DNA of 64,000 nt from Escherichia coli (GTDB lineage Bacteria > Pseudomonadota > Gammaproteobacteria > Enterobacterales > Enterobacteriaceae), in NCBI RefSeq assembly GCF_041886205.1, contig NZ_CP169031.1; one strand, 5' to 3'. How positions within the stretch are numbered: position 1 is the stretch's first letter; every line of letters begins with the position of its first letter. Of this stretch, positions 56,340 through 57,125 are shown piece by piece. The position numbers and the translations under genes are program-made. The notes beneath the pieces are model-generated. The model was not told the origin of the DNA. It did not search any database and was given only the letters and a program-made list of their open reading frames with translations.

Positions 56340-57125
56340 AGCCGCATTCACCGCAACGGAAAGAGCATTCCTGGTGGACCTGTAGATTGGGATATGAACC
56401 CGTTACAGGAGAATGCTCTTACCTGTTACGTGCTCCGTTTCGTGGAGCTAACGGCGGGTGATCGGGCCGCACCAGACTGGACTTATTTCAGCGTTATGCT
56501 CATGCCAGAGAATCAAACTGTGATGGTCGGTGCTGAACTCCGACACAGGGTTGTAGCAAGCCCCGCAAAGCGCGCACTACTGTAGTTGCGGCACATCAGC
56601 CTGTGCATTCACCACAATGTTGAGAACACTGGTTGTCACGCTGCAACGCAACATTTATTCGTAGATTGGGATATGACCCCGTTACGCCAGTGTTCTCAAC
56701 GTTGTAGTGCCGGTTACGGTTCCGGCCAGGCCTCTTCCTCAACGGGGTGTTCTCCATACGGACTACCGTTTATTGGTCGTTCCTGCGGTTTATGTTGTGA
56801 AGCCAGATGCTTATCTTCTGGTTGCTTCAAAGAGCTGCACTTCATCACAACGGTAAGAGCACTCGATGCATTTAAGCCAAGCCCCATAAGGGAGAATGCC
56901 CTTACCTGTTGTGTTGTGATGACCGGTGCTGATCTCCGGCTTGCGGTTATTTCAGACTCTCACGGGCGTTTAATTGCCCCGCCGAACAGCTCTTTTCCGC
57001 AATAGCTGCAATGTCTTTCGCGCATCAGCCTGCGCATTCATCACAACGGTAAGGGTACTTCGTAGGGATTCGAACCCTCTGCCAAGCTCGGCGATCTCCG
57101 ACGTCGCAAAATACCCTTACCTGTT
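56340..57125. repeat. array of four degenerate 190-260 bp units bounded by inverted repeats (tRNA-derived?)
   Basis: Recurrent GCATTCA(C/T)CACAA(C/T)GGTAAG(A/G)G at 56344, 56605, 56841, 57034, each with a complement CCCTTACCTGTTGTG downstream; a GGTTCGAATCC T-arm relic in the last unit. Confidence 0.6.

Follow-up and report, generated by a model that had tools for sequence, protein, structure and literature searches.

Introduction

Polycistronic RNAs of phages can be punctuated by hairpins that serve as RNase III sites, among them R0.3-R1.3 in the early RNAs of T7 and T3 and the N-leader and sib sites of lambda. Substrates of E. coli RNase III, such as the T7 early sites, fit a duplex of about 20 bp with a bulge or mismatch; in the T7 early RNA these sites are used for processing and stabilisation, and the precursors of rRNA and tRNA are organised likewise. 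Small structured RNAs can also lie among the tRNA genes of a phage: the T4 tRNA cluster yields two stable non-tRNA species, 1 and 2 (rnaC/rnaD), of which species 1 is a long hairpin that is cut by RNase III in vitro. At the level of DNA, integron attC sites are imperfect palindromes with outer AAC...GUU triplets, an extrahelical base and a variable terminal structure, and arrays of them bound short cassettes. Here we describe an array of hairpins, referred to as H, in a stretch of 64,000 nt of Escherichia coli DNA (contig NZ_CP169031.1, assembly GCF_041886205.1; "the window"), which represents a P1-like phage/plasmid. The array, first noted at positions 56,340 to 57,125, abuts a pair of tRNA genes. 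It may be an untranslated polycistronic RNA that forms the minus-strand leader of the ban operon, in which the H hairpins act as punctuation between tRNAs and a second structured module, referred to as M; we put the probability of this reading at roughly 0.45.

Results

An earlier, sequence-only reading of the window had reported four inverted-repeat units next to the tRNA genes, and repeat searches and folding find all four in their places (U1-U4, here H1-H4; Table 1). The left arms are spaced by 261, 233 and 196 bp, where 261, 236 and 193 had been given, a difference that reflects the choice of anchor only, and the loop segment common to H1 and H2 measures 25-26 nt at 96% identity. The repeat search also recovers the right-arm family, together with inverted repeats of 13-23 nt. 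The count of four nevertheless fell one short of the complete array: a fourth copy of the right-arm family at 57552-57568, past the tRNA genes, is the 5' arm of a complete fifth unit (U5, here H5), located upstream of tRNA-Asn and carrying a U-rich tail, UUUUCUUUU, in place of an M module.

The relevant strand for the units is the minus strand. Here H1-H4 fold with z-scores of -3.9 to -5.0, and none of 200 shuffled sequences was as stable; on the plus strand, the same units reach -30.3, -46.9, -27.9 and -39.7 kcal/mol, respectively (minus-strand values in Table 1). A covariance model of H built from homologues (R1) recovers H1, H4 and H3 with E-values of 1e-9 to 1e-7, which are rough owing to a shortened calibration, and scores 42-51 bits on the minus strand versus 14-19 bits on the plus strand. 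Over the 64-kb window, R1 finds nothing above 14 bits beyond the array. The H4 stem comprises about 20 bp with a bulged A, and its insert resembles tRNA in having a D-arm-like hairpin, GCGA..UCGC, and a canonical T-arm, AGGGUUCGAAUCCCU; this is the T-arm that had been noticed in unit 4 as GGTTCGAATCC, and it reads properly on the minus strand. The arms of H2 have diverged yet are compensated (CACUACAACGUUGAGAACACUGG / CCAGUGUUCUCAACAUUGUGGUG), and its apex is a GGG-GUCAUAU-CCC hairpin. The apex of H1, GGG-UUCAUAU-CCC, holds a CAU anticodon-like triplet in its loop.

H is present in well over 200 viral contigs. BLAST places pieces of the array in lambdoid phages of Escherichia, Klebsiella and Salmonella, in Enterobacter/Cronobacter phages and in the 157-kb virulent Klebsiella Taipeiviruses. 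A scan of IMG/VR for the 3' arm and tail (CCGTTGTGRTGAATGC) returned at least 120 loci, most of them genuine units, and a second, independent scan with a 5'-arm pattern likewise returned at least 120; both samples were ascertained by sequence pattern, and the first fixes the 3' arm by construction. Among the new loci of the 5'-arm scan, 88 of 102 sites have a 3' partner that pairs at 15 or more of 18 positions. Of 51 distinct partners, 46 have CCGTTGTG or TCGTTGTG as their last bases, and the sequence that follows the stem is diverse. The loci gathered ahead of the 5'-arm scan contain 138 H units, amounting to 107 unique sequences with 94-97 unique inserts. Among 100,044 species genomes, a 16-mer scan gave at least 120 loci, mostly chance matches (14 of 120 pass the arm-pairing filter); the canonical 5' arm is found at eight species-genome loci, of which the named ones are from Pantoea (two), Pseudocitrobacter and Pluralibacter, all Enterobacterales. 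H is, it appears, a widespread family in enterobacterial phages that has gone unnamed.

That the conservation concerns pairing, beyond primary sequence, is borne out by an alignment of 64 distinct arm pairs in which the insert was swapped for a GAAA linker. The structure pairs in 89% of cells, and 17 of 25 pairs show changes on both sides. None of five measures was reached in 500 shuffles, and sliding the partner by 1-3 columns lowers pairing to 31-57%. The stem has helical segments of 6 + 2 + 10-13 bp, set apart by a single bulged A and a single mismatch, the latter being U·U in 37 of the 64 arm pairs. Its lower helix is conserved in sequence, reading (C/U)(A/G)(C/U)AAC, bulged A, GG, the U·U position and AAG on the 5' side, opposite CUU...CC and GUUG(U/C)G; changes on the 5' side are almost all wobble-preserving transitions. 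The upper helix covaries freely, as in AAGCCAAAUCG/CGAUUUGGCUU and AAGAUAACUG/CAGUUAUCUU. At one stem position U·G is the commonest state, and since this would be an A·C mismatch on the other strand, the structure is selected in the transcribed strand. The sense strand is also the more stable one in 93 of the 107 units (mean -37.0 versus -31.0 kcal/mol). H is, accordingly, an RNA-level structure family on the minus strand of the window, in line with one of the two origins that the sequence-only reading had proposed, structured RNAs.

Table 1. Features of the array and its tRNA genes, in minus-strand order
Feature	Position	Strand	Evidence
H5 (U5)	57476..57569	-	R1 20.2 bits, E 0.01; fold -50.6 kcal/mol, z -4.6
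tRNA-Asn (GUU)	57208..57283	-	ARAGORN; Rfam tRNA model 74.5 bits
tRNA-Thr (UGU)	57130..57205	-	ARAGORN; Rfam tRNA model 72.9 bits; sequence
H4 (unit 4)	57042..57128	-	R1 46.5 bits; fold -45.4 kcal/mol, z -3.9
M4	56916..57044	-	BLAST matches, module scan, covariation
H3 (unit 3)	56846..56913	-	R1 41.9 bits; fold -37.8 kcal/mol, z -5.0
M3 (short)	56797..56848	-	Sequence; closing GUGAUGAAG...CUUCAC, hairpin CCAGA-AGAUAAGCA-UCUGG
H2 (unit 2)	56610..56710	-	Inverted repeat 23 nt, 91% complementary; fold -51.8 kcal/mol, z -5.0
M2	56520..56615	-	Sequence; in M covariation alignment
H1 (unit 1)	56352..56430	-	R1 51.2 bits; fold -37.2 kcal/mol, z -4.1
M1	56241..56355	-	Rfam RF02076 (STnc100) 42.0 bits, E 8e-7; gathering score 47

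P1, JL22, RCS47 and many E. coli plasmids match the 1.1 kb around the array at 96-100% identity. The annotated P1 record puts the array inside the ban operon, downstream of the C1-controlled promoter Pban/Op72, and the order is Pban (Op72), a "dicF-like region", tRNA-Asn, tRNA-Thr, the array stretch, tciA, tciB, tciC, tRNA(CAU) and ban, the flanking ban-operon genes all being on the strand that corresponds to the minus strand of the window. The window reads, on this strand, Pban, a terminator-like hairpin, the "dicF-like" segment, H5, tRNA-Asn, tRNA-Thr, (H4-M4)(H3-M3)(H2-M2)(H1-M1) and tciA. The first base of H4 is 1 nt from the CCA end of tRNA-Thr.

The "spacers" between the units are themselves conserved structured modules. 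Each of H1-H4 is followed by an M module, and because every reported hairpin precedes an M, the period of 193-261 bp is that of one H+M composite. Beyond the window, a module scan detects M downstream of H in 56 of 105 distinct flanks. Its general form is GUGGUG, AAU, a GCGC-AGGCUGAU-GCGC hairpin, 35-150 variable nt, and a GCCGG-AGAUCAGCA-CCGGC hairpin followed directly by CACCAC, a 3' strand that lies outside all selection steps. The three helices of M pair in 98% of cells, and 7 of 15 pairs are compensatory, a result reached in none of 500 shuffles. This signal emerged only on seeking the specific motif GCCGG-AGAUCAGCA-CCGGC-CACCAC; a G·U-tolerant scan for a downstream partner of the H 3' arm in general gave the same result as shuffled controls. 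The 3' strand of H (GUUGUG) and the 5' strand of M (GUGGUG) overlap by 3 nt. M is, then, a closed multi-hairpin module with an STnc100/PasD-like architecture.

The modules of the window differ in detail. M4 comprises GUGAUG, AAU, the GCGC-AGGCUGAU-GCGC hairpin, a variable core, a GCCGG-AGAUCAGCA-CCGGU hairpin and CAUCAC, and is 96-98% identical by BLAST to a segment of many lambdoid prophages. M2 has the layout GUGGUG, AAU, a GCAC-AGGCUGAU-GUGC hairpin, core, a GUCGG-AGUUCAGCA-CCGAC hairpin and CAUCAC, and the M3 segment recurs in Sashavirus and other phages at 83-95% identity. M1 is an STnc100-like leader of tciA, whose 5' strand overlaps the 3' arm of H1; the match covers positions 31-147 of the 206 of the RF02076 model. 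The same model scores 38-40 bits on the M1 homologues of D6 and Ro157c2YLVW, and 48.8 bits, at full length, on a copy in the Taipeivirus K751. The first 45 nt or so of M1, GGUGAAUGCGGCUAAGCGCACGCGGAACAGUUAAAAC, are almost identical to a stretch of the K-12 Qin prophage (24446-24500 of locus L133) that comes after the dicF terminator and leads into dicB. The Qin prophage of E. coli K-12 holds no H unit, only this M1-like start of the dicB leader.

The genomic contexts of H are recurrent. In lambdoid contigs NinG, a RusA-like resolvase, Q, H, holin, endolysin and Rz follow one another, all co-oriented, and most viral H units lie just past the late terminator, between Q and the holin of lambdoid prophages. 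As the recurrent neighbours are Q upstream and holin downstream, H can be placed where the late transcript begins, at the "moron" site; a T-run occurs no more than 22 nt upstream in 21 of 109 distinct flanks, consistent with the late terminator tR'. In six of the 109 units the first base falls between -2 and +1 nt relative to a tRNA CCA end, and tRNAs abutted by H are tRNA-Thr in P1 and Ro157c2YLVW, tRNA-Ser in D6 and tRNA-Asn in pJN2-26; another 13 lie 60-370 nt downstream of a co-oriented tRNA. Klebsiella phage 5 has Q, tRNA-Thr and H in succession. In prophages resembling mEp460 and CPS-53, the leftward early leader has a pair of H units between the repressor gene and yfdP, and the virulent Taipeivirus K751 carries a "dicF-like" sequence, an H+M unit and the full-length STnc100 match on one strand of a 3.3-kb stretch free of coding sequences (CDS). 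A survey of contig neighbours found no recurrent conserved gene or recombinase next to H.

Several further observations attach to these contexts. A small hairpin, GCUCCACGAAACGGAGC, stands directly before H1 in the window (56431-56449, minus strand) and recurs just upstream of H in many unrelated IMG/VR contigs, often 60-160 nt past a tRNA; CCUCGGAAGAGACGAGG is a second recurrent hairpin upstream of H units. In mEp460-type prophages no N gene is annotated; their H units fall within positions 2340-2700 of the locus gathered (L004), which also carries, near rha/antirepressor at 4967-5137, isrK (67 bits) and elements resembling C4 antisense RNA (44 bits). The gene-free 3.3 kb of K751, shared with UPM 2146, follows a tRNA-Met (300-3637 of locus L008, minus strand) and is dense in structured pieces. 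One of these, at about 2905-2990 in K751, resembles a cloverleaf with acceptor, D and T arms and no anticodon arm, GGCGAAG..GCGC AUAGGUG GCGC..AUGGUUCGAUUCCAU..CUUCGCCA, and receives no ARAGORN call. Phage D6 has an extra H unit past tRNA(CAU), between tciB and orf6 (470-546 of locus L001, minus strand); R1 detects no counterpart after the equivalent tRNA of the window, at 55418-55493. This tRNA, on the minus strand, is Met (CAU) by ARAGORN, and its homologue in the P1 record is the lysidine-dependent tRNA-Ile2 (trnI).

The start of the ban operon also bears structure. A strong terminator-like hairpin, GCCCAUCUUCGGGUGGGC, followed by U8, lies at 57757-57776 (minus strand), about 170 nt downstream of the expected Pban/Op72, so that transcription of the operon may open with a short, terminated leader RNA comparable to that of PR'-tR' in lambdoid phages. 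The "dicF-like region" of P1 (about 57660-57722 of the window, minus strand) is kept nearly base for base in K751 (about 2700-2760, minus strand). The Rfam DicF model has no match on the P1 region; weak "tmRNA_permuted" matches of 22-26 bits (threshold 47) occur at this spot in the window, D6, Ro157c2YLVW and K751.

Alignment of the window with reference P1, D6 and Ro157c2YLVW shows whole units gained and lost, with junctions inside the arms. In P1 and D6 the H4 insert is fused to the H3 tail, 196 bp including H3 being deleted with end points in the arms, and in Ro157c2YLVW the H3 insert is placed directly on tRNA-Thr. Equivalent slots of the relatives hold tRNA-Ser (D6) and tRNA-Tyr (Ro157c2YLVW). 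Across contigs, an identical insert can have different flanks, and the same flanks different inserts. As a by-product, the conserved arms could serve as homology for swapping RNA cassettes between phages.

The apical inserts are discrete and mostly unrelated alleles of 32-104 nt. T-arms (4-bp stem, UUCRANN loop) occur in them at 2.3/kb versus 0.054/kb in the background (44-fold), and hairpins with a CAU loop (N-Y-C-A-U-A-N) at 2.0/kb versus 0.075/kb (26-fold); the background is 4.3 Mb with tRNAs masked, and the counts are not phylogenetically independent. T-arm or anticodon-arm look-alikes are found in about one-fifth of inserts, and about three-quarters show nothing recognisably tRNA-like. 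In H4-type alleles the D-arm-like hairpin precedes the T-arm AGGGUUCGAAUCCCU, and the closing stem covaries (UUUUG/CGAAG, UUGCG/CGCAG, UUGAG/CUCAU); such alleles reach only about 15 bits with tRNA-Sec and mascRNA (H4 itself 14.6 bits with tRNA-Sec, threshold 47). GGGCUCAUAACCC, found in several alleles, equals exactly, in stem (three G-C pairs) and loop, the anticodon arm of metZ, an initiator tRNA of E. coli. In the mEp460 allele 15 of 17 positions agree with the metZ anticodon arm, and the minimum-energy fold (z = -7.3) predicts the hairpin. The apices of H1 and H2 are degenerate versions with common flanks (A-C ... AAUC) and covarying outer stems. On the window, ARAGORN calls only the Met, Thr and Asn tRNAs, and no unit matches RF00005 (gathering score 29 bits).

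Discussion

The most likely function of H is punctuation that processes and stabilises an untranslated polycistronic RNA. We infer that H, as an imperfect duplex of about 20 bp, would be an element for double-strand-specific (RNase III-type) processing and for protection of 3' ends, which would separate and stabilise the small RNAs beside it (tRNAs, M modules and the short leader RNA from PR' or Pban) as well as the mRNA that lies downstream. Such a role is favoured because H presents about two turns of imperfect duplex between independently structured RNAs and the mRNA that follows, because it begins 1 nt after the tRNA CCA in several independent arrangements, and because it is found in tandem where several small RNAs are strung together. 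RNase III calls for about two helical turns of mostly Watson-Crick pairs, and the predicted H stem provides them. A number of points nevertheless weigh against this role. RNase III has little sequence specificity, and the conservation of the basal-helix sequence across very different phages is left unexplained, as are the diversity of the apex and its enrichment in tRNA parts. The conservation of the 3' arm and tail in the first sample is partly imposed by the search pattern, and the 3-nt overlap makes it impossible for H and M to be fully paired together.

On two of these points, the conserved sequence of the basal helix and the diverse, tRNA-mimicking apex, a different function fits better. 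H could itself be a functional RNA, in which the base is a scaffold or protein platform that shows an exchangeable apical cargo, titrating a tRNA-binding factor, a tRNA-cleaving toxin or a defence nuclease; in many alleles the cargo would mimic the T-arm/elbow or the initiator-tRNA anticodon arm, and allele diversity would reflect an arms race. We regard this as doubtful. The number of distinct inserts, the excess of T-arms and CAU-loop hairpins, the identity to metZ and the covariation of the stems that flank the CAU hairpin among H1, H2, mEp460 and L025-type alleles all agree with it, and a basal helix conserved in its primary sequence points to a specific partner that binds it. Against this stand the large majority of inserts that hold no recognisable tRNA part, the phylogenetic dependence of the counts, the loops of the P1 alleles H1 and H2, which have degenerated to UUCAUAU and GUCAUAU, and the fact that a chance 13-mer match to some tRNA is not very improbable (roughly 0.25 when the number of alleles is considered); nor does the neighbour survey reveal a conserved gene, and there is no known partner protein. 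In its boldest form, which we hold to be more doubtful again, H would be a phage "display scaffold", whose basal helix is recognised by an enterobacterial factor and presents swappable decoys against tRNA-targeting toxins or nucleases, or hijacks tRNA-binding enzymes; if true, the approximately 95 alleles and their exchange between temperate and virulent phages would be a record of an arms race at the RNA level. The sequence-only reading had also proposed decayed tRNA duplications as the origin of the array, an idea that does not hold up, the repeated part being a non-tRNA stem and the inserts mostly unrelated to tRNA. The D-arm-like and canonical T-arm hairpins of H4 do stand in tRNA order, genuine tRNAs occupy adjacent slots in D6 and Ro157c2YLVW, and the topology of M is tRNA-like, with a closing stem of 6-7 bp, a 3-nt linker leading to a first hairpin of 4 bp, and a final hairpin of 5 bp directly against the 3' strand. 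Yet the conserved arms have no tRNA counterpart, the inserts of H1, H2 and H3 are not cloverleaves, ARAGORN calls none of the units, all Rfam tRNA matches on them are at or below 15 bits, the family holds about 95 unrelated inserts, and no nesting of H inserts in tRNA clades was seen, making this origin very unlikely.

Punctuation by H also has to be set against further readings. The units could be DNA-level recombination sites that bound cassettes, through attC-like folds, linker homology or MITE-like repeats, the RNA structure being incidental. Indel end points within arms, exchanged inserts and flanks, an anatomy like that of attC (outer AAC...GUU, extrahelical base, variable terminal structure, here of 32-104 nt) and the recurrence of CACAAC and GUUGUG at module boundaries, including the 5' side of the D6 tRNA-Ser, all speak for such sites. 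No integron-type integrase or transposase is found among the neighbours, however; CACAAC/GUUGUG departs from the attC R-box RYYYAAC/GUURRRY; there are no target-site duplications; the units, in highly transcribed leaders, are always co-oriented with transcription; and the junctions in the P1 relatives differ in place, one being in the 5' arm and one in the 3' arm, pointing to general homologous recombination with no fixed crossover. Because co-orientation is constant, a recombinase is absent and junction positions vary, a DNA-level role is less likely than one in RNA, and we consider it improbable. Control of transcription elongation, with H as a nut/boxA-like, put-like or anti-Rho element that keeps RNA polymerase going through untranslated leaders, seems slightly more improbable. 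The boxA consensus is UGCUCUUUA and lambda boxA is CGCUCUUAC; the commonest 3' arm of H contains the boxA-like UGCUCUUUCC or GCUCUUAC, followed by the GCGC-AGGCUGAU-GCGC hairpin, which has the size of boxB, and H occurs in the PL leader of N-less prophages, just past tR' and in the CDS-free stretches of 1.3-3.3 kb of P1 and K751. The boxA-like core is, however, lost in covarying variants such as CAGUUAUCUUACC and CGAUUUGGCUUUCC, so that selection acts on pairing; the segment lies within a stable duplex, some units lack the tail hairpin, and HK022, the paradigm of put, has no H unit. The case for antitermination is accordingly weak. Finally, the P1 record (NC_005856) fills the stretch with plus-strand open reading frames (ORFs), upl and plp ("putative lipoprotein"), with predicted sigma-70 promoters. 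These prove to be the Cys-rich ORFs that the sequence-only reading, which proposed the comparison with the plp-upl region of P1, had thought unlikely to be coding. Both are open in the window (63 and 139 aa), and were they real the repeats would be coding repeats. The NCBI annotation pipeline PGAP, however, places no CDS over the identical plasmid array or the E. coli prophage copies; the upl ATG is lost in phage Ro157c2YLVW through a 13-nt deletion in the H1 apex; the plp C-terminus is rewritten by indels, so that the 139-aa product of the window and the 125-aa product of P1, the latter running antisense into tRNA-Thr, end wholly differently; Cys is abundant in the 139-aa ORF; the lengths of the inserts, 32/48/29 modulo 3, show no multiple-of-3 constraint; and compensatory and G·U changes are on the opposite strand. 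We regard upl and plp as almost certainly spurious ORFs. In a CRISPR interference (CRISPRi) screen, P1 still formed plaques when plp, upl and trnT were knocked down, with no effect seen, and all were scored non-essential (PMC10695390). A conserved small ORF, starting at the AUG of GGUGAAUGC, was rejected on inspection, as frames and stops differ between copies.

Two long-standing hypothetical genes, upl and plp, come off the P1 map, and a defined non-coding RNA array takes their place. In hundreds of lambdoid prophages, Stx phages among them, the moron site that follows the late terminator opens with a conserved H+M element that current annotation ignores, and the poorly understood STnc100/PasD small RNAs (sRNAs) are now linked to a proposed processing context. 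The combination of a conserved base and a partly tRNA-mimicking apex points to an unrecognised host factor or RNA-processing rule in very different enterobacterial phages, and the conserved arms offer a concrete mechanism for the shuffling of small RNA and tRNA cassettes among phages.

Comparison with known systems

RNA family and covariance searches, which the sequence-only reading had put forward as a check, gave a divided outcome: the covariance model built from homologues scores H1, H4 and H3, as described above, and Rfam holds no family for H. Rfam 15 (E up to 10; 5 kb, 151 nt and seven related loci) returned chance-level matches only on H, such as mir-142 at 27.6 bits against a threshold of 57. 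A terminator scan found no intrinsic terminators at H1-H4 on the minus strand; a U-rich tail is present only at H5. The put RNA of HK022 was rejected as a relative, the best R1 match over the whole HK022 genome, in its nin region at 33.7 kb, scoring 13.7 bits (E 0.18), and the M3 RNA of phi80, a classical RNase P substrate, is the annotated oop homologue next to cII and is unrelated. In the literature, searched by sequence words and by P1, ban and RNA-seq keywords, no paper describing H hairpins was found; Tree et al. 2014 (PMC4104026) concerns other sRNAs at the same moron site, not the H hairpins.

YrlA resembles H4-type alleles in that a long basal stem closes a tRNA-mimicking domain with a D-arm and a T-arm. 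In the YrlA consensus, however, the T-arm precedes the D-arm (a permuted order), whereas in H4 the D-like arm comes first, and most H alleles lack a tRNA-like part. The YrlA model (RF02553) matches none of the units and reaches only 24-26 bits, against a threshold of 69, on the true tRNA pair; an identity of H as YrlA/Y RNA was rejected on the arm order and the lack of a covariance match. STnc100 and PasD are close to M rather than to H. They share with M a closing stem, UGGUG...CACCA, a first hairpin set off by a short linker and a final hairpin directly against the 3' strand, as well as the genomic niche, that is, the moron site after PR' and prophage leaders; M2, M4 and the common lambdoid form of M (GCGC-AGGCUGAU-GCGC...GCCGG-AGAUCAGCA-CCGGC) nonetheless have no RF02076 match, and H lies outside the Rfam model except for a few bases of its 3' arm. 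STnc100 has itself been related to the PasD sRNAs in a 2026 preprint (bioRxiv 10.64898/2026.05.13.724894).

The attC sites are like H in being palindromes with AAC...GUU triplets, an extrahelical base and a variable apex, and in forming arrays. In H these triplets are kept (A-U and C-G in 61-64 of 64 arm pairs), but CACAAC/GUUGUG breaks the RYYYAAC/GUURRRY consensus at one position, no integron integrase or other recurrent recombinase accompanies the units, orientation follows transcription and crossover points are not fixed. The T4 species 1 and 2 are, by description, small structured RNAs among phage tRNA genes, as H is; they are released from a common precursor, and differ from H in being single genes without exchangeable apical domains. 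The RNase III hairpins of T7, T3 and lambda are, like H, repeated and mutually similar imperfect duplexes of about 20 bp with an internal bulge or loop, co-oriented and placed between functional RNAs, and they can leave a protective 3' hairpin. H, whose structure is predicted, departs from them in separating small RNAs and tRNAs instead of protein genes, and in its unusual architecture, a base conserved in sequence beneath a hypervariable apex.

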